Shown here: piece after piece, positions 5,240 through 24,575 of the stretch
Layout: each line of letters opens with the position of its first letter
Numbering within the stretch: the first letter of the stretch is position 1
Assembly (NCBI GenBank): GCA_048885705.1
Contig: JBHLLJ010000003.1
Span: 1 to 62,411 of the forward strand
DNA length: 62,411 nt
Source: Candidatus Hermodarchaeota archaeon
GTDB taxonomy: Archaea > Asgardarchaeota > Lokiarchaeia > Sigyniarchaeales > SOKP01
Reading direction: 5' to 3'
Notes under the pieces: model-generated
The model's database searches: none
Seen by the model: the letters and a program-made list of their open reading frames with translations, nothing else
Told to the model about the DNA's origin: nothing
Position numbers and translations under genes: made by a program

Positions 5240-5383
5240 CTACTTCTTAAGCTTTTTTCGAAGCTTTTCCTCCATTAGTTTTTGACGAATATTTTTAACA
5301 TATTTATTATTTTCGATATTATTTTTCAGCGTCATTTTGTTATAGGTCCAGCCATTTCGCTTTCCATTTCCATTAGTTCCCAT
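5240..5383 (-). CDS. possible small basic protein (47 aa), uncharacterised
   Basis: Below the ORF-track size cut-off. My translation is MGTNGNGKRNGWTYNKMTLKNNIENNKYVKNIRQKLMEEKLRKKLKK, from ATG at 5381-5383 to TAG at 5240-5242. It sits in an otherwise empty 340-nt gap. No homology was recognised. Confidence 0.2.
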   Translation of the reverse strand: MGTNGNGKRNGWTYNKMTLKNNIENNKYVKNIRQKLMEEKLRKKLKK

Positions 5384-5515
5384 AAACGTCAAAACCAATG
5401 CGTATTTTCATGTTTTCCTATTTTTATTAGGTCCTTAATATATTTAAAGGTATATTATATCAACATAATTCTTACGCATATCCACAAATTTGTAGAGGAT
5501 ACTTAAATTTAAATA

Positions 5516-7690
5516 TTAAAATATTTTAAACGTAAGATGAATTTCTAAATTCTTTTCAAGTTTGAAAATAGGAACAACATTTACTCCTTGATAAATTTCT
5601 TTATAACTCTCTTCTGTGTAAGCATATGCAATAATTGGAAATTTAGTAATTTTAGTCATACCATATTTACTGGAGACATCAATCTCGAAGGTTAAATCAT
5701 AGGATTCATCATAAGCTCTAAAATGAGAACCATTATATTGAAATGATTCCAATAATTTCTTATCTTTATTATCCTTAAAATCTATTTGTTTACTTTCCCA
5801 TTGAAATTTATTCGGATCTCCATTAAAGAAAAATGGTATATCAATCGCTAGATTTAGATGTTTAATAACATGATTGAAAATGTCTTCATTTTCTGGTTTT
5901 TCATTGAAATTTATTCTTAGGGAGACTCTAATTTCATTTTCTTCAACATAAATATCTTTTGTAATTCGAACTGGGATTCTCTCATTAGAATCAGGATCCT
6001 TTATACTTCCCATTTTCTCCATTTCAATAATTGCTATCTTTCCATCTTTTTCGGTACTTGTAACCCTAAAATTTTCATCAACAAAATTTCCAAACTCATA
6101 GTATTGATCAGCATGAAGTTCTTCTAACGATACATCATCGTGTAAAAATCTAAGTCGTAATAAGCTTTTTTTAAATCTATCTACTAATACTTCTTTTGTC
6201 GCAAGTTTCTTACTTTCATGATAAGCTTCTGGCCATCTAGTTAAAGTATTTAATAAGTTATAAGATTTAGGTTTGTAATCTAATTCAAAAGTAGTCCCAC
6301 CATCAGAAGGATTGATATATACATTAAATATATCAGATTCAATCAAATATTCTGTTTTGCTATCTTTAAGAAAATCAATTGGAGTTATGTAAATATAGGA
6401 TTTCAGTTTCGGATTCATTAATATATTTATTTCATCTATAATTTTCTCAGCATTTATTAAATGGGTATAAACTGAAAATCTTAAAAATTGCAGATAGACA
6501 CCCCCAAACAGTCCATGCCAATAACAATCGTTGCACTGAGCTTTATAGATTTCATCCCAAGCTTCACCTATTTTATTCAAAATTAATGAAGTAAGTTGTT
6601 CATTTTGAACTTTTAGTAAGTTTTCTTCAGCATTGATGAGCTTATTTCTTATATGAAGCATCTTCTTATGCATATTGTTGGATTCGGGATACTTTACTAA
6701 GAAATATCTCCAAAAACCACCACTTAGAAATTGATAAATATGTTTTTTAGTCTTATCTTCCCTTAAACTCTTTCTAATATCCTTATAATTCTTTCGAATG
6801 GGTGTTGGAAGCACCCATTCACTCATTTTATCATAACTTGCTGTTGGAAGATAAACTAAACTTTTAGCCGGAAATTTGTTCATATATTCAGAAAGGGTTA
6901 ATGATTTAATCCATACGTTACTTCTTATTTGTTCCAAAAATGCGGGAATGAATGGTTTTCCGTTATCCCCATCATGATGCCCTTGTCCTTCTACATAGCA
7001 AATTTGGTGTGTAGTGCCCCAAACTCCCATTTTTTCCGCATCAGATATTAATAGAGCAATCCTGTCACCAAAATGATCTGCCATCTTGTTTAAATATTCA
7101 ATTGATAAGTAAGTTGGTTTCCAAGGGGTTAAATATCTTAATTCCTCATTTATTGGAAAAATTCGCAATGTTTTTCCTTCATCTTCAGTAATATAGGAAT
7201 AGAAAGTTCCTTCTTCGGTAATCCCAGTGGATCTAAAATGATTATCATCAAGGATAACATATTTTAAGCCAGCGTCATTTAAGAAAGAAGGGTAATTTGG
7301 TTCCCATACTCTTTCTGATAACCAAGCTCCTTTTACTTCTAAGCCAAATTCATTTTTTATCAAATCAGTTAATTTTTTTATTTGAGCAATTTTATCACGA
7401 TATGGGATTATCGAAAAAATAGGTTCATAATAGCCCCCTCCAATAATTTCTATTTGTCCTCTTTTTGCCATTATTTTAAGCTTCTCTATGAAATCGACTT
7501 TATTGTTTATTAGCCATTCCAATAAATTACCCGAAAAATGAAGGGTAATTTTTATATCTTCAAATTTAAAGATGTTATCAATAAGGGGTTCATATGATTT
7601 CTTATAAACATCTTCAAAAACCCATGGAAAATTATCAACAGGTTGGTGAAAGTGGAATACAATAGGGAGATTAATGCTCTTTTCAGTCAT
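5516..7690 (-). CDS. glycoside hydrolase family 57 enzyme (4-alpha-glucanotransferase / alpha-amylase-like)
   Basis: The N-terminus INLPIVFHFHQPVDNFPWVFEDVYKKSYEPL is the GH57 signature (HxHQP...). The 724-aa length fits GH57 glucanotransferases. Confidence 0.8.
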   Translation of the reverse strand: MTEKSINLPIVFHFHQPVDNFPWVFEDVYKKSYEPLIDNIFKFEDIKITLHFSGNLLEWLINNKVDFIEKLKIMAKRGQIEIIGGGYYEPIFSIIPYRDKIAQIKKLTDLIKNEFGLEVKGAWLSERVWEPNYPSFLNDAGLKYVILDDNHFRSTGITEEGTFYSYITEDEGKTLRIFPINEELRYLTPWKPTYLSIEYLNKMADHFGDRIALLISDAEKMGVWGTTHQICYVEGQGHHDGDNGKPFIPAFLEQIRSNVWIKSLTLSEYMNKFPAKSLVYLPTASYDKMSEWVLPTPIRKNYKDIRKSLREDKTKKHIYQFLSGGFWRYFLVKYPESNNMHKKMLHIRNKLINAEENLLKVQNEQLTSLILNKIGEAWDEIYKAQCNDCYWHGLFGGVYLQFLRFSVYTHLINAEKIIDEINILMNPKLKSYIYITPIDFLKDSKTEYLIESDIFNVYINPSDGGTTFELDYKPKSYNLLNTLTRWPEAYHESKKLATKEVLVDRFKKSLLRLRFLHDDVSLEELHADQYYEFGNFVDENFRVTSTEKDGKIAIIEMEKMGSIKDPDSNERIPVRITKDIYVEENEIRVSLRINFNEKPENEDIFNHVIKHLNLAIDIPFFFNGDPNKFQWESKQIDFKDNKDKKLLESFQYNGSHFRAYDESYDLTFEIDVSSKYGMTKITKFPIIAYAYTEESYKEIYQGVNVVPIFKLEKNLEIHLTFKIF

Positions 7691-11320: not shown

Positions 11321-12895
11321 TTAATTTATAGATTTTATTTGTGTTTCTACTTTTTCAGTTAGAATAAGCGGATTTATTCTATTATTAGACGCATCTGGTC
11401 TTCTAATTGTTTTACTTTTTATTCCACGTTCCATTATTTCCTTCATTTCATCAGAAATTATATCCTTTGTCATTCCCATTGAATGAAGCATATCCAATCC
11501 ACTCTTAATAACTGTTTTAGCAAAACGAGGTACATTTCTCCCCATCCAATTAAATTTTCCAAAAGGATTGCAATATCTTTTTGCCACCATTTTAATCCAT
11601 CCCTTCAGATAGTATGCAGAATAAGCTTCACCAACTAATTGGTATATTTCATTATTTGTGAGCTGTTCTGTGCGCATCATTGGATGGAATAAATCATAAT
11701 ATCTATAATTATTACTTGTAATCATACTTTTTTCTGACATTTCATGATAAAAATCAGTTCCAGGAAATGCTGTTATGGGTGTAAATTGAATACAGGTCAG
11801 ATTAAGTGATTTTGCAAATTGGATATTTTCTCTAACCATTGTCTTAGTTTCACCTGGAAACCCAATAATCACTCCTCCAAATATAGAGATTCCTCGATTT
11901 TGAAGTGAAGAAACTACCTTTTTGACCATATCTGGTTTAGTGTTTCGTTTATTCATAGCATCAAGACTTTGTTGATGCATTGATTCAATTCCTAGAAATA
12001 CTTGCCTAATACCAGCTTTATGCATTAGATCAATCAACCATGGATTTCGGTATAAAGTATCAACACGAGATTGGCAGGAAAAATAGATTTTATTTGGTAC
12101 CCCCGATCGAATGATAGTATCAAGTATTTCCTTTGTCCGCTTTATTTTAATGGTAAAGTTATCTTCACAGAAAAAAATAAAATCATTTTTCCAGTCTATA
12201 TCATAAATTTCCTGCATAATCCTTTTAGTTGATTTTGTACGATATGTAACTGGACGATCATTGTTCCGCCACATCTTTATTATGCAGCAAAATTTACAAT
12301 TATGAGGACATCCTCTTGAAGTTTCAAGTTGGGCGACTCTTGCACCTAAATAAATGTACTTTTTATCATCTAATAGATCTCTTCGAGGCATTGGAAACTT
12401 ATCAAGGTTAGGTTCCAATTTTCTATCCTTATTATGTAAAACCTGTCCATCTTTATTCTTATAAGAGATACCATCAATATCTTTTAAAGAAATATGATTT
12501 TTTGCCTCATCAAGATAACTTATTAGTTCACGAAATGTATGTTCCCCCTCTCCTCGAACCGTATAATCAATCGCGGGATGTTTTGCAACGTATTCAGGAG
12601 CTAATGTTGGTTGATAACCACCTATTATAGTTGTACAACCAAGATCTTTTGCCATTTCTGCCACCTCAAATGCATGAGAGATTTGAGGTGTCATACTTGT
12701 GAGAGCTACAACATCACTTTGGTTCAATAATGAACGAAATTTGTTTTCATTATACTTATGGACTTTAAAATCAAACAATTCTGCTTCATGCTCTGGAACC
12801 ATAGCTGCAATTGATATTAAGTTTAATGGAGGTCCTTTAATAATCGCATCGAGCCCAGAGCTAAGTCGTGCTGGATTAACATATAAAATTTTCAA
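11321..12895 (-). CDS. B12-binding domain radical SAM protein
   Basis: An N-terminal cobalamin-binding-like domain (MKILYVNP...ALTSMTP) is followed by the radical SAM cluster motif SRGCPHNCKFCC (CX3CX2C). TTG start. Confidence 0.8.
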   Translation of the reverse strand: MKILYVNPARLSSGLDAIIKGPPLNLISIAAMVPEHEAELFDFKVHKYNENKFRSLLNQSDVVALTSMTPQISHAFEVAEMAKDLGCTTIIGGYQPTLAPEYVAKHPAIDYTVRGEGEHTFRELISYLDEAKNHISLKDIDGISYKNKDGQVLHNKDRKLEPNLDKFPMPRRDLLDDKKYIYLGARVAQLETSRGCPHNCKFCCIIKMWRNNDRPVTYRTKSTKRIMQEIYDIDWKNDFIFFCEDNFTIKIKRTKEILDTIIRSGVPNKIYFSCQSRVDTLYRNPWLIDLMHKAGIRQVFLGIESMHQQSLDAMNKRNTKPDMVKKVVSSLQNRGISIFGGVIIGFPGETKTMVRENIQFAKSLNLTCIQFTPITAFPGTDFYHEMSEKSMITSNNYRYYDLFHPMMRTEQLTNNEIYQLVGEAYSAYYLKGWIKMVAKRYCNPFGKFNWMGRNVPRFAKTVIKSGLDMLHSMGMTKDIISDEMKEIMERGIKSKTIRRPDASNNRINPLILTEKVETQIKSIN

Positions 12896-13156: not shown

Positions 13157-14296
13157 CTATTTAAAATAAGAGATTAGTGTATTTTTGATCATCTCGAAAT
13201 GACCTAAATGCGTCTTCTCAAGATTATCAAGCGATTCGATAATTCCTAATTTTTCAATCCTTTCAGTAATATTGAAATATGGAGAATCCTTTAACTTTTT
13301 TACTAGTGCTTTATTTTTTTCAAGATTTTCTAATAAGAATTCCATTGGGTTTAATTTATGAGTTCCTAACATGGCTTGAATGATTGACATTAGCATTGCA
13401 TCGAAGGTGACTCTCAAGATTACTTCATGATCAAATTCCGATGATATAGGAAATAAGTATGATTTAAGCATAGATATAGATTCTTTAAATAGCCCTAAAG
13501 ATTCATTTCCTAATTTCTTTATTCGCTCATTATGAGCCCGGTTCTCAGATGCTCTTAAACATAAGGCGGAGACTGTTTGGTATTCTGCTACAAAATGAAT
13601 GAATCTGGCTTTTGCATTAAGGTAGGTATCTTTTGATTCTTCCTCATCAATAAGATCATCTAATTCATCCAAAGATTTTCTGAAATAAGAAGCAATATCG
13701 GAGAATTTTTGAGCAGCTCCTTCAAATTCTCCCCTTGATAATAAATTCAATGCTCTTTTTTCTTCTTGCTCATATAATTCATCAAATTTATGTATTTTCA
13801 TAACAGCTTTTAATATTAATCGTTTTCCTTCATCTTTTTTAATCTTAGAGCGCTCAAATGTTTGTCCTGCTTTTAAAAGTAGTATTGAAGATAAATTATT
13901 ATACTCATCTGGATCAGTTTCATATAAATATTCTGAAGCTTTCTGCCAAGATTCTCCTGCAGTCTCCCAGTCATGCATATTAAAAGAGAGATTTCCTAAT
14001 TGTATTAACAATTTAGCAGAAACCTCGTAAAGTTTTAATTCTTCAGTTTTTCTAATGATAGATTTTAATCTATAAACAGCTTGAATATTATTTTTAAATC
14101 TCGAGATTATTTGAGCTATTCTGATATATAATTGATCTAATTTAAGGTAACTGCCAAGATCAAGGTAGATAGAAGCTGCTTTTTCATAAATTTGGATTGC
14201 TTCATGTCCTTTCCCTTTGTCAGCAAGAGTTTCTGCTTGATCTATTAATCTTATAGCCTCTAACTCTTTCTCATCGTTATAATTATTATCTATCAT
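13157..14296 (-). CDS. TPR-like helical repeat protein, function unknown
   Basis: 379 aa, apparently all-helical, with repeated A/Y/L-rich pairs (EAIQIYEKAASIYLDLG, WETAGESWQKASEYL). Confidence 0.4.
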   Translation of the reverse strand: MIDNNYNDEKELEAIRLIDQAETLADKGKGHEAIQIYEKAASIYLDLGSYLKLDQLYIRIAQIISRFKNNIQAVYRLKSIIRKTEELKLYEVSAKLLIQLGNLSFNMHDWETAGESWQKASEYLYETDPDEYNNLSSILLLKAGQTFERSKIKKDEGKRLILKAVMKIHKFDELYEQEEKRALNLLSRGEFEGAAQKFSDIASYFRKSLDELDDLIDEEESKDTYLNAKARFIHFVAEYQTVSALCLRASENRAHNERIKKLGNESLGLFKESISMLKSYLFPISSEFDHEVILRVTFDAMLMSIIQAMLGTHKLNPMEFLLENLEKNKALVKKLKDSPYFNITERIEKLGIIESLDNLEKTHLGHFEMIKNTLISYFK

Positions 14297-14468: not shown

Positions 14469-15353
14469 TTAAAATTGCTTAAATAGTTTAATATTTCGAT
14501 TCTTTAATATATCTTTGAATGCTATTGATTGGTATGCAGAAGCAAATGATTCTTGAGCATCTTCAATTGCGCCATAAAAAATGAAGTTCGAAAACCATGT
14601 TACGATGAACATAATACTAGCTCTTCTATATTTGGTATGAAATTTAATATTTAACCGAGGAGAGGAATATTGAAAAAGAAAAAGATTAGGTGCCGTTCCA
14701 ACTGGAAGTCTCAATGATTTGCTAATTAATTGTTGAGTCTCTAAGATATGAGCCAAACTCTCTAAATTGATCACTCCTCCGTCAATCCATATTCTTTCAA
14801 CACCAATATTTTTTAATCCATCAATGATATTCTCATTATTAGGTTGATTTTTCTCTGTAAGATATGCATATCTCTGAGTAGAAGTCATATTATCTGAACC
14901 AAGAATTAGTAACACAACAGATTTTATTTTATTTTTCTGTAGTATTTCTATTTCTTTCTTATTTTTTAGATTCGAAATCGTATTATAAATGTATTGTTCA
15001 GGTTTTATTCCAGCTTCTTTTAAATATTCAATTCCTGCTATTCTTGATTCAAAGTTTCCACCTAAAATGAATGGAGGATTAAAATGTTCCAAATAAAATT
15101 CTAAATATTTTAACATAGATTCGGGGGTAGTAGCGGAAATTTCTACCAAATTAGGGATTTTATATTGATCTGATAACGAACGATGTGTTTCTATGCGTTT
15201 CAAAGCCTTTTGAGTATTAAACACCTCTGGTTTTTTTCTATCTACTATAGTTTCGTTCTGATAAAAAATTGTACCAATTAGAACAGGAGGTAATTCAAAA
15301 TGTCCTCGTGCTAATATTATATTCTCATAAGTATAATATTTAGTATCTTCCAT
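14469..15353 (-). CDS. MtrH-like (tetrahydromethanopterin S-methyltransferase subunit H family) methyltransferase
   Basis: PPVLIGTIFYQNETIV, YIYNTISN and LRLPVGTAP parallel the MtrH motifs (GTIFY, IYNSI, LPVGSG) recalled from methanogen MtrH. Confidence 0.6.
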   Translation of the reverse strand: MEDTKYYTYENIILARGHFELPPVLIGTIFYQNETIVDRKKPEVFNTQKALKRIETHRSLSDQYKIPNLVEISATTPESMLKYLEFYLEHFNPPFILGGNFESRIAGIEYLKEAGIKPEQYIYNTISNLKNKKEIEILQKNKIKSVVLLILGSDNMTSTQRYAYLTEKNQPNNENIIDGLKNIGVERIWIDGGVINLESLAHILETQQLISKSLRLPVGTAPNLFLFQYSSPRLNIKFHTKYRRASIMFIVTWFSNFIFYGAIEDAQESFASAYQSIAFKDILKNRNIKLFKQF

Positions 15354-15541
15354 CTTTAGACCAACTTAAAAATTTGATATTTAAAATAGGAATGAAAAAT
15401 TATTTAATCTGCTTAATTTTTCCAGAAGATAACTATTTTTCTAAACTTTTTTTAACTAATGTCAAGATTATATGTTTGGAGACTATTAATTATTTAAGAA
15501 TTTGTAAAATAATCTCAAAAATAATAAAAACATTGATCAAA

Positions 15542-15796
15542 ATGGATGATGAAACCATATCACAAGTTAATGTAGCAGCCTATTATCTGGCAGAAAAAGG
15601 ATATGCTTATGATAAACTCTGCTGGATGTTAGCAGAAAGGCAACTTTTCGTTCAAAAAGACCCAAAATATAAAGATGAAAATAGGATAAGAGAAAAGGCA
15701 GCAGAAATATTTTTTTCTGGCCCAGCTTACGATATTTTGTGTTATTTAATTTCAGAAATAGATATTATGCTAAGATTAAGTAAAAGTCGTAAATGA
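15542..15796 (+). CDS. hypothetical small protein
   Basis: This is the internal ATG of track ORF 15374..15796. The upstream 56 codons are low-complexity I/K/L-rich sequence inside a promoter-like AT-rich spacer. Confidence 0.3.
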   Translation: MDDETISQVNVAAYYLAEKGYAYDKLCWMLAERQLFVQKDPKYKDENRIREKAAEIFFSGPAYDILCYLISEIDIMLRLSKSRK

Positions 15797-15798
15797 AA

Positions 15799-17004
15799 TC
15801 AATAAAGGTGCAACTTATAATCACAACTTTTACAATGACCTTCAATTAACTTTTTAAAACATTCCTCATGATAGAGGGTACTACATTGAGGATTTCCACA
15901 TTGAACTGCTGGTTGACCTTCTTCAAAAATCAGATGACAAATCGGGCAAGCATTAAAAAGAGCTTCTTCTCCTAATGTCTTAACGTCATTGATATATTTT
16001 GCGGGTACTAGATCAGGTTTCTGAATTGGTTCTTCTTTTAATCCCGCTGTAAGAACTCTTAATTTTTGAATTTGAGATACTTCTATAGGAATCTTTAGAA
16101 GGTAGAAACAATGTGGGCATCTAGCAGTTCCAGATCTTTTTACTTGGTGATTCTTTTGAGAGTCTGCCCATGCTGCTAAACAATGAATATGAAAAGGAGT
16201 AGCACAATTTGGACAATACCTCCCTGTTACATAAAAAGACCCTTTTGTATACGGATTTTGATCAGAAAAACAAATTGAACATTTCTTAAAATCTACCTCT
16301 CCCCTAATCTCTTTTGCCCGTTGTTCTTGATCTTTTGTTAAATCTTGAACTCTCAATAAACTCGCTGCAATTTTTCTAAGAAAAGCTGGATTTTCTATAA
16401 GTACTTCTTTCTTGGATCCATATGTTTTGTAATTATCATCTGCAATTTCTTTTGCTGCCCTATTTAACGATTCATAATCATTACTATAAAAATACCGACC
16501 ACCTGTGATATCACTGATTTTCTTTAGAACATTATCTTGTCTCGCATTTCCAAGACCAAAAGTATCAATTCTGATGTTTAATCCTTGAGCTAAGCGTGCC
16601 ATTTTTATGGGATCAACAACAGACTTTAAATAATTTCCATCAGAAATCAAAACTATTCTTGGAGTTTTAGCACCGACTTTGCGTAATTCACCTATTAGAG
16701 TTTTGATTGACAAAGCTAAGGCATCACCCATCGCTGAATATCCCCCACAATTCAATGAATTCAAGGCTTCATTAAGGCTATTTTCGAAACTAGCAGTTGT
16801 AAAGTCTATTATCTTTTCCGGTTCATTAGAATATTTTATTAACGCAAAAGCACTTAAACTATCTAAATTAAATCTTTCCTTTATCAATGTTTTAGCAGCA
16901 GATATGCAACAATTTAGTCGATTAGGACTAAAGTCCTTTCTAAACATTGATCTTGACGTGTCTATGCAGATGACAAGATTTTCTGGAATTCTATTTTCGG
17001 ACAT
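15799..17004 (-). CDS. von Willebrand factor A domain protein with two C-terminal C4HC3 (PHD/RING-variant-like) zinc fingers
   Basis: MIDAS motif VICIDTSRSM (DxSxS). Finger 1 is CSIC-x18-CPNC-x4-H-x2-C-x20-CPHC and includes FHIHCLAAW. Finger 2 is CPIC-x12-C-x4-C-x4-H-x2-C-x8-CKSC. Confidence 0.7.
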   Translation of the reverse strand: MSENRIPENLVICIDTSRSMFRKDFSPNRLNCCISAAKTLIKERFNLDSLSAFALIKYSNEPEKIIDFTTASFENSLNEALNSLNCGGYSAMGDALALSIKTLIGELRKVGAKTPRIVLISDGNYLKSVVDPIKMARLAQGLNIRIDTFGLGNARQDNVLKKISDITGGRYFYSNDYESLNRAAKEIADDNYKTYGSKKEVLIENPAFLRKIAASLLRVQDLTKDQEQRAKEIRGEVDFKKCSICFSDQNPYTKGSFYVTGRYCPNCATPFHIHCLAAWADSQKNHQVKRSGTARCPHCFYLLKIPIEVSQIQKLRVLTAGLKEEPIQKPDLVPAKYINDVKTLGEEALFNACPICHLIFEEGQPAVQCGNPQCSTLYHEECFKKLIEGHCKSCDYKLHLY

Positions 17005-17223
17005 TTTAATTAAAGTATTTAACGGCTCTATTTTTTAATAGTTAGCAAATGATCCTTTTGATTCACTCTTATTTTAATTGATTATTAATAACTAATTAAA
17101 TAATACTGCTTCAATTAGATAAAGTTTATTTTTACAAAAAAAAATAATATTTAATATAACGTAATTTACTATTAACATTAAGAATATTAGTAAAAAGAAA
17201 ATCGATATTAAATTTGATGCGTA

Positions 17224-18432
17224 ATGTCAGAAAATAGTAGTAAAAATGTAGCTATTAAGGATTTCTTTAAAAGGAATGTTCTAATCAATGAACTTGAGGA
17301 GGTTTTAAGGTTCAAACCAGATACACTAATAGGTGTTGATACAGTTAGTTCTGAACATTTAATTAATGAAGGTATAAAGAGCATTAATGATTTAGCTAAC
17401 TTATCTGCCTCAAATCTGCCAGAAATAAAAGAAATACTACCAAATATGCTACTAAAATGGGTGAAGATTGCCCAAGTAATCCAAAAAAATGTACAGGAAC
17501 AACTTCGTCGCCACAAAAAGATCCTAATGATTGGTTTGGATGCAGCAGGTAAAACGTCTATTCTTGCAGTAGTTCAAGATAAATTTTCAATAATTAAATC
17601 TCTTCTTCCGACAAGAGGTGTCAAAAGGGAAAAATTAGACTTTTTCGGTTATCCAGTAATCTCGTGGGACCTTGGTGGACAAGTACAATATAGAGAGAAA
17701 CTTTACTTCAATCGACCTGAACTTTTCTTTACAGAAGCAGATATAATGATATATGTTATCGATACGCAAGATCCAGATAGAATTCCTGAAGCTGCCAATT
17801 ACTTTCGTGAAGTTTTAAAGGTATTAGTAGATTTACATGAGAAGCCTAAAGTTTTAATTGTTTTAAGCAAAAGTGATCAAGATATACGGAAAACTCTACA
17901 ATGGCAACAAAATGTCACCAGTATTAAAAATAAATTTAACAGTATTACAGATGATTTTGAGGATTTTGAAGTCGATTATTGCGATACTACGGTGTTTCAA
18001 TGGGAAACTATTATGCAAATGTTCAGTGTTGCACTAAAGAAAGTTTCTGATACTTCTGAAATAATTGAACATATACTTGAAGAGTTTACGCATCAAGTTG
18101 ATGCAAAAGCATCGAGTTTAGTATCGATGGATGGATTAATCTTCGGTAGTTTTACTGGTTCAGATACAGATGAAATGCTTGTAAATAACACAGCTTTATT
18201 GCTCCAAACTCTTTCGAACTTTTATAATTCAATTGGATTAATTAGAGAAAGATCAATAAAATTAGAGTTACCTCTTAATGGTTTTACCATTCGAGGAGAA
18301 AAACTATTTGAGTATTCAGAATTACAGATACCAGTATATCTATGGATGCTCTCACAGAATCCGAATCTAATAGAGGGAAAAATTGACTATTTTAAAGAAC
18401 AATTACTCCCATTGATTAATTTATTCTTATAA
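17224..18432 (+). CDS. Arf-family-like small GTPase with N-terminal HhH-like segment and C-terminal Roadblock/LC7-like domain
   Basis: G1 is GLDAAGKTS (Arf signature), G3 is WDLGGQ, and G4 is the variant SKSD. The C-terminal SSLVSMDGLIFGSF...IKLELPLNGFTIRGEKL resembles the Roadblock/MglB pattern. Confidence 0.7.
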   Translation: MSENSSKNVAIKDFFKRNVLINELEEVLRFKPDTLIGVDTVSSEHLINEGIKSINDLANLSASNLPEIKEILPNMLLKWVKIAQVIQKNVQEQLRRHKKILMIGLDAAGKTSILAVVQDKFSIIKSLLPTRGVKREKLDFFGYPVISWDLGGQVQYREKLYFNRPELFFTEADIMIYVIDTQDPDRIPEAANYFREVLKVLVDLHEKPKVLIVLSKSDQDIRKTLQWQQNVTSIKNKFNSITDDFEDFEVDYCDTTVFQWETIMQMFSVALKKVSDTSEIIEHILEEFTHQVDAKASSLVSMDGLIFGSFTGSDTDEMLVNNTALLLQTLSNFYNSIGLIRERSIKLELPLNGFTIRGEKLFEYSELQIPVYLWMLSQNPNLIEGKIDYFKEQLLPLINLFL

Positions 18433-18493: not shown

Positions 18494-18712
18494 TTACATA
18501 GTTTCTAATTCCATATTTGCCGCCAGTAAAAATTCATTACATTTATCTAGCATCTTAATTGCATTACTCAGTTTTTCTACAACTGATTCTAAGCCTTTTT
18601 CCTGAGCAATAAATTGCCATTTTAAGAAACTTTCTTTATGTGAATCATTATGGTCTGCCCAATGTTTACATAATTTTGTTAATTTTAAAATTTCTCTATC
18701 TTGTTTATCCAA
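18494..18712 (-). CDS. hypothetical small helical protein
   Basis: 72-aa ORF with a TTG start. No family recognised. Confidence 0.3.
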   Translation of the reverse strand: MDKQDREILKLTKLCKHWADHNDSHKESFLKWQFIAQEKGLESVVEKLSNAIKMLDKCNEFLLAANMELETM

Positions 18713-18904: not shown

Positions 18905-20173
18905 ATGGGGTTTAATATATTATTAGTGAATCCAAATAGATTTAAAAATCCGCCAGTAATCCCTATTGGCTTAGAATATCTGGTGACTGCATTAGAGAAA
19001 CAGAATCATAATGTTGATATACTAGATTTATGCTTTTATGAATCACCAGAAGAACGGTTAGCTATGACTCTGAATAATACAATATATAATCTTGTTGGGT
19101 TCTCAATCCGTAATATAGATTCTCTAGGTTATTTTAATAATGAGTTCTTTTTACCTTCCATAAAACCATTGGTAAAAATTGTTAAAAAGCACAATATTCT
19201 AGTAATTCTTGGTGGCTCTGGGTTTTCTGCTATGCCATATGAAATCTTAGATTATCTTGATGGAGATTATGGAATTATAGGCCCTGGTGAGGCAATTTTT
19301 CCTCGTTTTATTGAATTATTGCAATCCGGACAATTATCAAAAAAAATTTATAATGGCTGGCAATATAATACGGACTCTGAGTTGGTTCATTTACGTGGAA
19401 AAAAGATTGATTATGGAAAATATTTACCTCTCTCTGAGATAATTGGATTTGAAACTCATAAAGGATGTTTAGGACAATGTCCATATTGCATTAATGCTAA
19501 TACACAAATTTGGTATAAAAAAATCCAAAATATTATAGAAGAATTAAAATTTATTGTCAGTCAGGGGTACACTCACTTTCAGTTATGTGATGATGAATTT
19601 AATTCAGATTTAAAATTTTCAATCAATTTTTGTGAAGCATTAACCAAGGCAAAACTTCCGTTAAAATGGAAGTTATTTATGAAACCTTATCCTTATAATA
19701 AAAAATTATTCAAATTGCTGCATGAAACCAATGCGTATAGAATATCGATTAATGTAAATAGTGATATAAAAATTCAAGAATTAAATAATTATACATATCA
19801 AGACTTAGAAAAGATTATTGGGTATTGTAAAGAATACAAGATAGAGTTAGTAATTGATTTAATAGTTGGTTACCCATATGAAACACTGGATTCTGTTAAA
19901 AATATGATCAATTTTTTTAAGAACCATCGACCAACTACAATAACTGTTGATTCTTACTTCCGGGTATACGAACATACCGAATTAGCTAAACTGATAAGAA
20001 AAGATACCTCCATACAAAGAAATTTGATAAAACCTCAATTAGAAAGATTGGAGTTCTTAGAACCTGTTTTCTATAATCAAATTAGTCAGAGTGTACTAGG
20101 AGAATTAATTTCAGATGATGAATTGTTTAGAATTGCCTGGCTTACTCCAGAATTAGATTATAAAAAGATCTAA
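18905..20173 (+). CDS. B12-binding domain radical SAM protein
   Basis: The N-terminus ILLVNPNRFKNPPVIPIGLEYL resembles a cobalamin-binding-like domain. The cluster motif is HKGCLGQCPYC (CX3CX2C). Confidence 0.7.
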   Translation: MGFNILLVNPNRFKNPPVIPIGLEYLVTALEKQNHNVDILDLCFYESPEERLAMTLNNTIYNLVGFSIRNIDSLGYFNNEFFLPSIKPLVKIVKKHNILVILGGSGFSAMPYEILDYLDGDYGIIGPGEAIFPRFIELLQSGQLSKKIYNGWQYNTDSELVHLRGKKIDYGKYLPLSEIIGFETHKGCLGQCPYCINANTQIWYKKIQNIIEELKFIVSQGYTHFQLCDDEFNSDLKFSINFCEALTKAKLPLKWKLFMKPYPYNKKLFKLLHETNAYRISINVNSDIKIQELNNYTYQDLEKIIGYCKEYKIELVIDLIVGYPYETLDSVKNMINFFKNHRPTTITVDSYFRVYEHTELAKLIRKDTSIQRNLIKPQLERLEFLEPVFYNQISQSVLGELISDDELFRIAWLTPELDYKKI

Positions 20174-20220: not shown

Positions 20221-22569
20221 TTAGGTTCGACACAATCTCTTTAAAAGTGTTGGATCTACTATTTCTTTTGGTTTCCAACCTTTTTGTTTAAGATATTCTT
20301 GAATTTCATCTTTCATATTAATTGGGATGTCTGCTTCAAGGCGAACGAATTTTTCTAAATCATTTGGGAATTTAACGCCCTTATATTTGCGTTCTAAATC
20401 AATCCAATGGGATAATTTTATCATTCGTCCTTTAGAGTTGTCCGCGGGTCTTAATGCTAATTTAGCAACTAAACAGATAGCTTGTTCGATACTTTCTGCT
20501 GTTGTTAAAAGATGTTCTGGTCCGGGACCTATAATGTGCCCTTCAGAACCATCTCTTGCATTAAATACTTTCCAATTATCCTCATCATCAGATCTACCAA
20601 TATACATTCTTCGATATTCAGCCGCATGAGGTCCTACAACTGCTGGGACTCCTAAACCATTAGCCATACTTGCTATACTTGCAGCCTTTTGGGACATTGC
20701 TCCCCAAGCTACTCCAACAGCACCTACCCTATTTAATATATAATCTGCGATTTCTTCAAAATTCCCCCGTAATGGGCGCCTTGCGAAAATATTCGCAACT
20801 TTAATTGCTGCACCGGTAATATGAGGGTTAGCAACGCATGATCCAACATTAACTAAACCTCCTCGATCGAAATCCCCCGGAAACCGATCATATAAGGTTT
20901 TACCTTCCTCATCTTTTACAAGACCTATATCCATCGCTCCACAGCCTGAAACTACTACAATATAGTTCCTAACCAGGAATTCCTCGGCCATTTTATACAA
21001 TTCCTGAATCTCATGGGCATAATTACCACAACCAATAATTGCAACTATTCCTGGAATTTCTCCTAAGACAATAGGAGCTCCTACATTTCGTATTTCTGTA
21101 TCTTGAATTGGACCTCTACCAGCTCGGCAATTATATTTTTCTGTTTTTATGTACTCACGACCTGCATATTGGATTAATGTCAATGGTGAAACGTTCTTCA
21201 TACAATCAGATTCGCATCTACCACATCCTAAACAATCATGGAAAATTCCTTCTAAAACAGAAAAATCCGCATCTTTAGCTAAATTGATACCTTCTACAAG
21301 TGGTAGATCATTCGGACAGTTTCTCTGACAGTTACCACAACCATTACAGTTCATAGCCATATCTTGACAGCCTTTTTCATCTGGAACACCACTTTTTCCT
21401 TTTCGAATTGGTTTGATTTTAATTGCTGTTTCAGCAGCAACTTCACCAGCTTTTATCGGATCTAAGATTAAAACTCCATCCATCTTTCCACTGACTAAAT
21501 CATTTACTATTTCCATCATTGGATCATCTGTTCTGTCTGGAAATCCACCCATTATCTTTTCATTAGTAGTTATATAAGGTGCTCCCACCGCCTTAGCTTC
21601 CTCATAAGTTCTTAGATTTACACATTGTTCATCAACCATAACTACATCTGCTAAACCAGACCGAATATAATGTAGTTGCCTTGAATAAGACCCAATAATT
21701 TTTGCTGCTGAATAATATCGTGTAAGATCATGAGATGTACAACAAATTGCACCTACATCAACTTTATCTTCATACCCTTTTTCTCTTATATAATCTACTA
21801 ATTCAACTCCCGGTGCTACATTGTGCCCAATCATTAATATTATTGCTTTATTTTCAGTGTCCATAGTACCCATTCCTAATTCTACAATTGGAACATTAGG
21901 ATCTCCTATAGGCATACCATATGCGCAAATTTGAACTGCATCTGAAATTTCCATTCCTACTGAATCACATAAACCAGCTAAGAAACTTTTTGATTCATAA
22001 TCAAGATAACTCGATTCTTGCCCTGTATGACCAGCTGCTAATAATTGAGTAAGAGTATAATGAACCCACTCCATTGCTGTCTCCAAGTCTTCTAAACTCT
22101 CAGGTTTCATACCAAGAACTAAACGAGTGTGTGGCATTTCTACAGCAATGTTATTTCCAAAATTGATTGGAACATTCCCATATTTCTCTTTTAACCAATG
22201 AAGTAGATGGTCTCCGTGAGCAGAGTGACACGCCGCTCCAATGCAACATGCAATTTCTACAATCCTAGCTTGCTGTGTCTCCATATTTATACCGCAAGCC
22301 CCTGTCCGCCCTTTAGAGAGATTACATTTACCATATGTACATAAGCAACACATATCACAGATGGGCATATAAAACGGTTTATATCGTTCCATTAACTTGA
22401 AAAACCAAGATCTTAGATCTCTAAGTCCGGGAGCAGGATGAGGACCCATAGGCTCCCATTCTGTCTCATCACCGTAAGATATCTTCCCAGTTGTTAATTC
22501 AAATCCTTTAATTGTACCAAGTGGACCTTTATATTCATCAATTTTTACTTTTGCTCCTCTCTTTTCCAA
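20221..22569 (-). CDS. cdhA: CO dehydrogenase/acetyl-CoA synthase complex alpha subunit (archaeal CdhA type)
   Basis: 782 aa. The N-terminal Cys cluster is PICDMCCLCTYGKCNL. Two inserted ferredoxin-type motifs, CNGCGNCQRNCP and CLGCGRCESDC, are typical of archaeal CdhA. TTG start. Confidence 0.85.
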   Translation of the reverse strand: MEKRGAKVKIDEYKGPLGTIKGFELTTGKISYGDETEWEPMGPHPAPGLRDLRSWFFKLMERYKPFYMPICDMCCLCTYGKCNLSKGRTGACGINMETQQARIVEIACCIGAACHSAHGDHLLHWLKEKYGNVPINFGNNIAVEMPHTRLVLGMKPESLEDLETAMEWVHYTLTQLLAAGHTGQESSYLDYESKSFLAGLCDSVGMEISDAVQICAYGMPIGDPNVPIVELGMGTMDTENKAIILMIGHNVAPGVELVDYIREKGYEDKVDVGAICCTSHDLTRYYSAAKIIGSYSRQLHYIRSGLADVVMVDEQCVNLRTYEEAKAVGAPYITTNEKIMGGFPDRTDDPMMEIVNDLVSGKMDGVLILDPIKAGEVAAETAIKIKPIRKGKSGVPDEKGCQDMAMNCNGCGNCQRNCPNDLPLVEGINLAKDADFSVLEGIFHDCLGCGRCESDCMKNVSPLTLIQYAGREYIKTEKYNCRAGRGPIQDTEIRNVGAPIVLGEIPGIVAIIGCGNYAHEIQELYKMAEEFLVRNYIVVVSGCGAMDIGLVKDEEGKTLYDRFPGDFDRGGLVNVGSCVANPHITGAAIKVANIFARRPLRGNFEEIADYILNRVGAVGVAWGAMSQKAASIASMANGLGVPAVVGPHAAEYRRMYIGRSDDEDNWKVFNARDGSEGHIIGPGPEHLLTTAESIEQAICLVAKLALRPADNSKGRMIKLSHWIDLERKYKGVKFPNDLEKFVRLEADIPINMKDEIQEYLKQKGWKPKEIVDPTLLKRLCRT

Positions 22570-22822: not shown

Positions 22823-23410
22823 TTAAAGAGTGGATAAAAATTCTGATACAGATTCTTCTGAATCAACTAAACTATCATCAAAGGATTCTCCAATTAATTC
22901 AAATTTGAAAACATCTCTTTCGTGCCCTAAAAGAACGCACTCTATCTCTTCAGCATTAACATCGATTTTTAAACTTTCAAACATGCCACTAAAAAGTCCT
23001 TGATAAAGTAAACATAAATTTTTTCCCATAACGTTTTCTCGTTCTTCAGAAGCCAAAGAATCTGTAACTGTAATTAAAAGATGATCTTTTTTAAAGTGGC
23101 CTGTTAATTCTCCAAATCCCATAAGTTCTAATGCTTCGAGGTTTCCAAGAACTACTTCTTTTCTCGTTGCCATTGTTTCTTTACTCCAATCTTTATTATA
23201 AAAGAATTTATCCACGTAGTTACGTCCAATAGTTTTTCCGACCCATATTAAAATATCATCTGCATTTGTACCAGCGAATTCAGAGAATTCGATTAAATCT
23301 ATTGGCCTTAACATTAATAAACGTAAATCTTTTTTTTTATCACCGAAGTACAATTGACCTGTTTTTTCATCAATCATAATTTGTAATTCTTTTTTAAGTC
23401 TTTTCGACAT
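22823..23410 (-). CDS. V4R (4-vinyl reductase / Bet3-TRAPP-fold) domain protein
   Basis: MGFGELTGHF...ITVTDSLASEE...NLCLLYQGLFSGMF...AEEIECVLLGHERDVFKFEL matches the V4R pattern (GwG..v.v.ns.e....C....G...G.....E..C...G...C.f.i) as I recall it. Confidence 0.65.
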   Translation of the reverse strand: MSKRLKKELQIMIDEKTGQLYFGDKKKDLRLLMLRPIDLIEFSEFAGTNADDILIWVGKTIGRNYVDKFFYNKDWSKETMATRKEVVLGNLEALELMGFGELTGHFKKDHLLITVTDSLASEERENVMGKNLCLLYQGLFSGMFESLKIDVNAEEIECVLLGHERDVFKFELIGESFDDSLVDSEESVSEFLSTL

Positions 23411-23576: not shown

Positions 23577-24575
23577 TTAGGAAGTTAGCAGATCAAAGAT
23601 CTCTGGTATTATCTTATCTATATTAAAATTAGTTTTTACTGAAGTAAATAGGAATTTCCATTTTCTATTTTTTATATTTCTGAAGTTAAAATAATTAGAG
23701 AGTTCTTTTTCTAATTTTTGAAATTCAATCTCGTATTCTTCTTTAGAACCTTTTGTTAAATCAATTTTATTACCTAAAATAAGCAACGGGATGCTATCTA
23801 ATTCTTCTTTGTTTATTACATTCCAAAACTCATGTTTTGATTCCTCAAATCTTCTCTGATTAGCAATGTCAATCATGTAAATAATGATATTAGAGTCTTG
23901 AAATCCTATTAACCATTTTGGTCGAAATGATCTCTGTCCAGGCATATCCCAGACTGCTAATAACCCCTCCTCTTTTATTGGGAGATATTCGATATTAAAT
24001 TTCCTGGTTGGAGTAAAAAAATTTTCATTAAATTTCCCCGTCTTTAATCGTCTAACTAGACTCGATTTTCCTACTTCATCAATTCCAAATAAAAAAACTT
24101 TGAAGAATGTTTCTCTTTGAAAGTAATAGTCAAACTCATAAGGTTTTTCGATTACTTCATCACCGAACCTTCGAATATCAATAAAGATTGAAATTAATAA
24201 ATTATCGACTTCCAATTCGTCATCGAAGGAATAGCCATTACCATTGTTTAACAGTTCATTCAATAATTCTTTAAATATTTCCTTATAGTCATAAGGATTA
24301 TCTTCATCATCAAAAATAAGGCCTATTATAATTTTACCGTTAATACAACAAGTATACATATTTAATTCATTAAGAAATTGTGCAATAGGCTCATGAATTA
24401 CATATTGAACCGAATTTGGTAAATGAGAATATTCTTCTTTATCATGCTCTTTTATTATATTATTAACAAGTCTTTTATCTTTAATACTGATAATTTCATG
24501 AGGATAACTATAGATATTAAGATCTTCTAAATCACAGATTTTATTTCCTTTAAACAAAAAGATGTTATGTAGCAA
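23577..24575 (-). CDS. Ras-superfamily (Arf/Rab-like) small GTPase with about 160-aa N-terminal extension domain
   Basis: G1 is GIDEVGKSS, G3 is WDMPGQ, G4 is GNKIDL, and G5-like is TSVKT. The N-terminal domain is unassigned. TTG start. Confidence 0.75.
   Translation of the reverse strand: MLHNIFLFKGNKICDLEDLNIYSYPHEIISIKDKRLVNNIIKEHDKEEYSHLPNSVQYVIHEPIAQFLNELNMYTCCINGKIIIGLIFDDEDNPYDYKEIFKELLNELLNNGNGYSFDDELEVDNLLISIFIDIRRFGDEVIEKPYEFDYYFQRETFFKVFLFGIDEVGKSSLVRRLKTGKFNENFFTPTRKFNIEYLPIKEEGLLAVWDMPGQRSFRPKWLIGFQDSNIIIYMIDIANQRRFEESKHEFWNVINKEELDSIPLLILGNKIDLTKGSKEEYEIEFQKLEKELSNYFNFRNIKNRKWKFLFTSVKTNFNIDKIIPEIFDLLTS

Follow-up and report, generated by a model that had tools for sequence, protein, structure and literature searches.

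The GTPase gene and its conservation

The window analysed here is a stretch of 62,411 nucleotides from Candidatus Hermodarchaeota archaeon (GenBank assembly GCA_048885705.1, contig JBHLLJ010000003.1, positions 1 to 62,411 of the forward strand), with a G+C content of roughly 30%. The subject of this report is a gene at 17224-18432 on the forward strand, which encodes a probable Rag/Gtr-like switch GTPase made of three parts. It is an open reading frame (ORF) of 402 codons with an ATG start, and it stands alone on its own strand. The product is composed of an N-terminal domain resembling two helix-hairpin-helix motifs, (HhH)2 (residues 1-97, 17224-17514, forward strand), a GTPase domain (G domain) of the Rag/Arf type (residues 98-275, 17515-18048, forward strand) and a C-terminal roadblock domain (CRD; residues 278-401, 18055-18426, forward strand). 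This anatomy of HhH-like head, G domain and roadblock tail had been proposed in an earlier note on the same DNA and was borne out, as were the ORF itself and all of the quoted motifs: GLDAAGKT at residues 104-111 (17533-17556), WDLGGQ at residues 148-153 (17665-17682), LSKSDQ at residues 214-219 (17863-17880), the HhH-like stretch LINEGIKSINDLANLSASNL at residues 46-65 and the roadblock-region stretch SSLVSMDGLIFGSF at residues 297-310. The borders given there were accurate, with the G core placed at 17512-18048 and the structural alignment spanning residues 96/97-275.

Homologues of the 402-amino-acid protein numbered 571 at E<=1e-3. The best 120 were at least 80% identical to it and nearly all exactly 402 residues long, and the metagenome-assembled genomes (MAGs) from which homologues came were labelled Promethearchaeota, Lokiarchaeia or with other Asgard names. 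When the N-terminal 95 residues were searched in six frames, 67 of the 68 genomes sampled from the same taxonomic family were positive, mostly with one copy each, and these matches sat inside open frames of about 400-420 amino acids; the signal of this domain weakened outside the family. All three parts were conserved across 40 orthologues, with somewhat lower conservation in the N-terminal part. Given the 571 homologues, the family-wide presence of what is mostly a single-copy orthologue and the conservation of its parts, 17224-18432 is a real gene and not a chance ORF.

Family assignment and fold

The top Pfam match of the protein was Gtr1_RagA (PF04670) with an E-value of 6e-22 over residues 99-311 and profile positions 1-213 of 232, and its score of 78.6 bits compares with a curated cut-off of 22. 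The Arf model (PF00025) came second with 1.5e-20 and 73.8 bits and covered profile positions 9-134 of 174, i.e., 126 positions. Gtr1_RagA was also matched by every one of 107 relatives, which form a diverse homologue set clustered at 50% identity. Among sequences of the PDB, the two best phmmer matches were 8yl2_A (1.9e-35, query residues 88-353 against chain residues 35-298) and 8zla_A/9m28 (1.4e-26), neither of which is an Arf. The fold library gives 8YL2 the title "RagA-like small GTPase from Asgard Lokiarchaeota (LokiRagO)" and 8ZLA/9M28 the title "monomeric Rag-like small GTPase" (LokiRagM).

A full-length AlphaFold2 model, built from the alignment of the 107 diverse relatives, was confident with a mean predicted local distance difference test (pLDDT) of 89.5 and a predicted template modelling (pTM) score of 0.86. 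Foldseek ranked LokiRagO first (E 2.9e-21), followed by RagA, RagC and Gtr1, each over about 300 aligned columns. In VIA structural alignments, 8yl2_B was matched with a Z of 31.4 and a root-mean-square deviation (rmsd) of 3.4 over 284 residues (model residues 97-398), and RagC, RagA and Gtr1 with Z values of 26-28 over about 285 residues (model residues 96-400). Single-domain Arf and Arl structures reached Z values of 21-22, and their alignments ended at residue 275.

In residues 278-401 of the model, DSSP assigned the order alpha-beta-beta-alpha-beta-beta-beta-alpha, which is the roadblock order, and in VIA this domain co-aligned with the CRDs of LokiRagO, RagA, RagC and Gtr1 (model residues 97-400). 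The roadblock fold that had been suggested for the C-terminal domain is thereby supported on a predicted structure by both Foldseek and VIA. The Pfam model Robl_LC7 (PF03259) found no match in this protein at E<=1 and none among the 107 relatives at E<=1e-3, so it is structure from which the roadblock identity is drawn.

On sequence profiles and the predicted model taken together, the protein is a two-domain GTPase of the Rag/Gtr type with Arf-like P-loop and switch II motifs. Of the traits by which an Arf would be recognized, the Arf-style G1 (GLDAAGKT) and G3 (WDLGGQ) are both present. At the N-terminus, residue 2 is Ser and a folded domain of 97 amino acids precedes the G domain; instead of a single domain of about 180 amino acids, a roadblock domain of 125 amino acids follows the G domain; and the G4 motif is SKSD in this protein and HKxD as the family consensus, not NKxD. 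In the earlier note the gene was framed as an Arf-like core to which a roadblock domain is, unusually, fused covalently. This frame did not hold, as a G domain with a C-terminal roadblock domain is the defining layout of Rag/Gtr proteins, Gtr1_RagA is the top Pfam match, and the solved Lokiarchaeota structures (8YL2, 8ZLA, 9M28) share the layout. Its premise that the roadblock proteins of Rag systems are separate partners fell with it, since the structural alignments show Rag/Gtr proteins carrying a C-terminal roadblock domain of their own. In the report on the Lokiarchaeon MK-D1, GTPase-roadblock proteins are described as "Rag-like", and many of them are annotated as Arf (PMC10933270).

Nucleotide-binding motifs and variation of G4

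The P-loop or G1 motif GLDAAGKT has G104, G109 and K110 conserved in at least 90% of the family, and the switch I motif PTRG (17608-17619, forward strand) has P129 and T130 conserved to the same degree in the 107 relatives. In WDLGGQ, which forms G3 and the start of switch II, D149 is invariant, G151, G152 and Q153 are at least 90% conserved, and Q153 is the candidate catalytic Gln. G4 follows as SKSD at residues 215-218 (17866-17877, forward strand), and its K216 is invariant in the family alignment. In G4 motifs, specificity for guanine depends on the Asp, and the Lys provides stacking with the base.

The first residue of G4 (position 215) was H, S, N and T in 79, 13, 12 and 3 of the 107 relatives, respectively, while K216 occurred in all 107 and D218 in 104. 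On a FastTree phylogeny of these relatives, made with the column of the first G4 residue left out, at least 16 changes of this residue were needed, with at least 5 separate origins of S. H, N, T and S are all present at G4 within the well-supported clade of 19 members that contains this gene. Among orthologues, SKSD occurred in 30 of 41, which constitute the close lineage, and NKSD, NKFD, HKFD, HKSD, TKYD and SKAD were found farther out. The paralogues in the genome mostly have HKxD, with NKxD in two and SKxD in two, the latter being this gene and C9:16984.

The description of this motif as NKxD changed to SKSD was therefore not upheld, because HKxD is the consensus of the family and H, S, N and T all occur in the first position. 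Nor does an altered G4 stand out as noteworthy, since the survey found that the change is common in the family, which is what the earlier note itself had named as speaking against its proposal. From the alignment, SKSD is a lineage variant of the Rag-like HKxD and not a damaged NKxD. Because the Lys and Asp of G4 are essentially invariant, guanine specificity is probably kept. Altered base specificity as an account of the motif was rejected on the strength of the conserved Lys and Asp and the freely varying first residue.

The N-terminal helix-hairpin-helix-like head

The head was analysed with a domain-only alignment of 17 orthologues built from DNA, from which a profile and a domain-only model were obtained. 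Its helices lie at residues 24-29, 40-48, 54-58 and 73-96, and its sequence follows the pattern I..FFK ... L.G(I/V)D....L....I(K)TI.DLA ... KW..IA, in which G37, L57 and W79 are conserved, G37 of the first hairpin in at least 90%. The profile matched E. coli NusA at 9.4e-6 across both of its acidic repeats, AR1 and AR2, and further matches were found to isolated AR2 (2e-3), Pol IV (4e-3) and the C-terminal domain (CTD) of RNA polymerase alpha (3e-2). Pfam HHH_5 matched 10 of the 17 members, with a best E-value of 4.4e-4.

The domain-only model was confident as well (pLDDT 89.5). Foldseek with the isolated head returned E-values of 0.1-1, and almost all matches were HhH-containing parts of proteins, i.e., the thumbs of Y-family polymerases, NusA AR2 (template modelling score 0.73, rmsd 2.0) and Rad51. 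In the wide VIA comparison the trypanosome (kinetoplastid) mitoribosomal protein mL85 came first with a Z of 7.5, followed by NusA AR2 with 7.0 (rmsd 2.3, 64 of 70 residues aligned) and the N-domain of Rad51 with 6.6, values below 8 that can reflect a common helical arrangement; the alpha CTD, the N-terminal part of RAD51C and SAM domains ranked lower. "HhH-like" was accepted despite these weak fold matches because the sequence profile indicates the same families, and on the combined sequence and fold evidence the head is called (HhH)2-like with modest confidence. The HhH-like stretch of the earlier note was thus recovered in the NusA profile match, in HHH_5 and in the fold matches.

The canonical G-h-G hairpins that contact the backbone of DNA are not found in the head. 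The first hairpin reads L-I-G-V-D with only G37 conserved, and the second lacks a glycine. The net charge ranges from -9 to +4 across the 17 orthologues, and the head counts as neutral to acidic. AR1 and AR2 of NusA are protein-binding acidic repeats. The single hairpin glycine, the range of charge and the likeness to the NusA acidic repeats favour protein docking over nucleic acid, and the head would be a partner-binding module whose partner is more likely a protein.

N-terminal extensions of about 90-140 residues occurred in 50 of the 107 rows of the tree, where they fall into two large groups, and five members of the second group align across the same HhH motif. Their presence in two groups together with the shared motif indicates that the layout of HhH head, G domain and roadblock domain is old and has diversified within these archaea.

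Gene neighbourhood

Upstream of the GTPase gene and on the opposite strand lies a gene of 401 codons (15799-17004, reverse strand) whose product combines a vWA domain with two RING-type zinc fingers. Its Pfam matches are VWA (1.8e-16), Ssl1 (2.1e-10), Prok-RING_1 (8.5e-7), zf-RING_2 and FANCL_C. The two genes share a divergent intergenic region of 219 base pairs (17005-17223). Of 43 loci that carry an orthologue of the GTPase, at 30-92% identity, 40 have this vWA-RING gene next to it. In the remaining three the GTPase start is within about 250 base pairs of a contig end and the upstream side is missing, which leaves the gene adjacent in all 40 informative loci. The usual layout is head-to-head, with a spacer of about 200-230 base pairs in most orthologous loci, and in the most distant loci (L018, L126 and L127) both genes are on the same strand. 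That the two genes have stayed together despite rearrangement, and at identities as low as about 30%, speaks for a functional link. In L133 and L134 a second, diverged vWA-RING paralogue of 27-32% identity was observed on the other side of the GTPase gene (L133:6234-7535, reverse strand; L134:41-775, forward strand).

A looser member of the neighbourhood is a TPR or alpha-SNAP-like helical protein encoded at 13157-14296 (reverse strand), which has weak Pfam matches to SNAP and TPR. The distant loci L017, L018, L126 and L127, and also L133 and L134, have a homologue next to the pair. None of the GTPase, vWA-RING and TPR proteins matched a defence model of PADLOC, and a reading as anti-phage defence was rejected on this ground. 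A COPII-like reading, in which Sar1 would be paired with the vWA trunk of Sec23/24, was dropped, as it found no support in the data and the G domain and the CRD match Rag and not Sar1.

Two small ORFs flank the pair. One of 72 amino acids (18494-18712, reverse strand) has no Pfam match and is convergent with the GTPase gene, and within the family most orthologous loci carry it in the corresponding place, with 49-84% identity. The other, of 140 amino acids (15374-15796, forward strand), is conserved only in its last ~84 residues, from Met54 onwards (MDDETISQ...), with 54-76% identity in L013-L016; judged by this conservation, the true gene is probably the shorter version, located between mtrH and the vWA-RING gene. 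Other neighbours at 20221-22569 (reverse strand), 14469-15353 (reverse strand), 18905-20173 (forward strand) and 11321-12895 (reverse strand) include a carbon monoxide dehydrogenase/acetyl-CoA synthase gene of the alpha type (Prismane family), an MtrH-like methyltransferase gene and two genes for B12-binding radical S-adenosylmethionine proteins. The positions of cdhA and mtrH near the GTPase pair are conserved within the family, and this nearness looks like plain synteny and not a functional link.

Paralogues and wider relatives

The genome (3.4 Mb in 238 contigs) contains about 14 strong paralogues of the Gtr1_RagA type among 55 small-GTPase matches, located on contigs C7, C9, C19, C33, C79, C82, C84, C111, C120 and C198. 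Three of the Rag-type paralogues occur within 10 kb on C9, some have long N-terminal extensions of 126-192 amino acids, and the paralogue on C79 carries a coiled-coil-like tail in place of the roadblock domain. The ORF map showed no Rag-like paralogue adjacent to the GTPase gene within the window. A second small GTPase, which matches Arf in Pfam at 5e-31 and is extended by about 150 amino acids at its N-terminus, is encoded in the window at 23577-24575 (reverse strand), directly beside a V4R-domain protein (22823-23410, reverse strand).

In L017, from the distant Lokiarchaeal MAG CR_4, a second Rag-like gene (5261-6175, forward strand) is placed in tandem after the HhH-Rag-like orthologue. Its product, 304 amino acids long and without an HhH head, shares 34% identity with residues 99-402 and might pair with the orthologue as a heterodimer, by analogy with RagA/RagC. 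Pfam Folliculin (PF11704) was matched by two of the 107 Rag-like relatives, at best with 2.8e-4. One Rag-like gene with 33% identity to residues 98-321 (L033) belongs to a MAG labelled as the bacterium Candidatus Deferrimicrobium, which may be a binning error or a transfer.

Proposed function

Taken together, the gene is read with good confidence as encoding a Rag/Gtr-like switch GTPase of a Lokiarchaeia-type (Promethearchaeota) Asgard archaeon, with a putative partner-binding HhH head, a probable roadblock platform and the vWA-RING protein as its candidate partner. By analogy with other Rag-like proteins, it would cycle between GTP- and GDP-bound states, and its roadblock domain would be a platform for dimerisation and docking, not a built-in GTPase-activating protein (GAP). 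The S of SKSD would be one of the residues tolerated at this position (H, N, S or T), which does not appear to set base specificity, and the preference for guanine would remain. The head would dock a partner, presumably a protein sooner than a nucleic acid. As its gene is constantly adjacent and usually divergently transcribed, the vWA/double-RING product is the most probable functional partner, and might serve the switch either as effector or as regulator.

More specifically, the GTPase and the vWA/double-RING protein, perhaps with the TPR/alpha-SNAP-like protein, might form a GTP-switched ubiquitin-ligase or proteasome-adaptor module in which the head or the acidic roadblock domain docks the metal ion-dependent adhesion site (MIDAS) of the vWA domain. 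This extension is speculative and we regard it as doubtful. If true, this module would be an archaeal forerunner of the way in which eukaryotes couple Rag-type switches to regulators that contain RING domains.

The small GTPases of Asgard archaea are of interest as forerunners of membrane and nutrient signalling in eukaryotes, and we know of none with a known partner or function. A GTPase of this kind is already published and crystallised, and the roadblock fusion and the G4 "change" are traits of the family. What is less ordinary here is the extra HhH head and the constant vWA/double-RING neighbour of a conserved single-copy Rag-like paralogue. In the searchable literature, neither the HhH-like identity of the extra head nor the constant pairing with a vWA-RING gene was found described. 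Should the GTPase and the vWA-RING protein interact in a nucleotide-dependent manner, this would be the first time that an archaeal Rag-like switch and its effector or regulator are named as a pair.

Alternative explanations

Several points weigh against the Rag/Gtr-like switch with its HhH head and vWA-RING partner. With the G domain alone, Rag and Arl structures tie in VIA (RagD Z 23.2, Arl2 Z 22.3), and the Arf Pfam score lies close behind that of Gtr1_RagA. The label "Rag-like" denotes architecture and profile matches, on sequence and a predicted model, and not a shown orthology. The G4 of this protein is SKSD, unlike the HKxD that is typical of Rags, if not strictly defining. The roadblock call is a structural one, made on a predicted model without a roadblock Pfam match, and the fold matches of the head are weak in both Foldseek and VIA. 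Finally, the counts of synteny come from related genomes, which are not independent.

The protein could instead be a true Arf-family GTPase with added domains, its N-terminal helix coupled to the nucleotide and binding membranes as in Arf/Sar1. The Arf-style G1 and G3, the 73.8 bits of the Arf model and the many Arf/Arl structures matching the G domain at Z 21-22 would fit, orthologues are publicly annotated as "ADP-ribosylation factor-like", and helix 73-96 before beta-1 overlays the N-terminal helix of Arl2 in some alignments (model residues 80-276). It is nevertheless quite unlikely, as Gtr1_RagA scores above Arf and covers 213 profile positions against 126, the whole two-domain unit matches Rag/Gtr at Z 27-31 compared to 21-22 for a one-domain Arf, and the G4 consensus is HKxD; there is also no Gly2 for myristoylation, and the folded 97-residue domain replaces the short amphipathic helix of Arf. 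Very unlikely is a roadblock domain acting in cis as MglB does on MglA, that is, a built-in GAP or guanine nucleotide exchange factor (GEF) making the switch self-regulating. The idea goes back to the earlier note and draws on the general knowledge that roadblock proteins regulate small GTPases (MglB as a GAP, and Ragulator and longin complexes in GEF or GAP roles). The predicted geometry between G and roadblock domains fits Rag/Gtr and LokiRagO with an rmsd of about 3 A over about 285 residues, and in these proteins the CRD is generally known to serve dimerisation and docking at a distance from the nucleotide pocket. That the S of SKSD shifts specificity to ATP or XTP, or disables the switch and leaves a pseudo-GTPase, is highly improbable. 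In its favour, the first G4 residue of this protein is neither N nor H, and SKSD is fixed in 30 of 41 orthologues. Against this, the base-specifying D218 and the stacking K216 are kept in nearly all and in all relatives, respectively, the position has moved among H, N, S and T repeatedly with several origins of S, the P-loop, the Thr of switch I and DxxGQ are intact and conserved, and the solved relative LokiRagO was deposited with GTP bound.

The head, too, allows another explanation, in which it binds DNA or RNA and the protein is a nucleic-acid-linked switch, for example in repair, transcription or chromatin. HhH motifs are well known for binding DNA non-specifically, the structural neighbours include the thumbs of Y-family polymerases, the Rad51 N-domain, RecG and Rev1, several members match HHH_5 and RNA_pol_A_CTD, and G37 is the highly conserved glycine of the first hairpin. 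The nearest sequence relatives are, however, the protein-binding AR1 and AR2 of NusA, the second hairpin is without its glycine, no conserved basic surface is evident from the sequence at charges between -9 and +4, and the conserved neighbours include no DNA-metabolism genes. A nucleic-acid-binding head is thus considered unlikely, and the Rag/Gtr-like switch with a protein-docking head is retained.

Comparison with known systems

Residues about 25-95 of the head find their nearest relatives, in sequence and in fold, in NusA AR1/AR2, the alpha CTD and the N-domain of Rad51. Compared with the (HhH)2 of NusA and SAM-like domains, the match is weak and confined to the domain, the second hairpin is degenerate here, and the context is unrelated, as no transcription or recombination protein is attached.

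In Candidatus Prometheoarchaeum syntrophicum MK-D1, Rag-like GTPase-roadblock and longin-GTPase-roadblock architectures were catalogued by Tran et al. 2024 (PMC10933270). Extra domains are labelled "?" there and the legend of Fig. 1f refers to various domains of unknown function; the accessible part of the text does not describe the HhH head or the pairing with a vWA-RING gene.

Eukaryotic RagA-D and Gtr1/Gtr2 have the same two-domain architecture, and the G4 consensus of the archaeal family is HKxD as in the Rags. Identity to the protein described here is 15-19%, and the latter differs in its Arf-like P-loop, its SKSD and its extra HhH domain. It has no neighbouring paralogue from which an obligate heterodimer might be suspected and no Ragulator or TORC1 context, its neighbour being the vWA-RING gene.

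LokiRagO (8YL2, homo-tetrameric) and LokiRagM (8ZLA, 9M28) come from the same phylum and share the layout of a G domain followed by a C-terminal roadblock domain. LokiRagO also shares the Arf-style motifs GLDxxGKT and WDLGGQ, whereas its G4 is HKFD and the 97-residue HhH head is absent from it. At only about 28-30% identity, the protein described here is a different paralogue; in this genome LokiRagO has a closer relative on contig C9, and the HhH-headed gene is accompanied by at least 13 further Rag-like paralogues.

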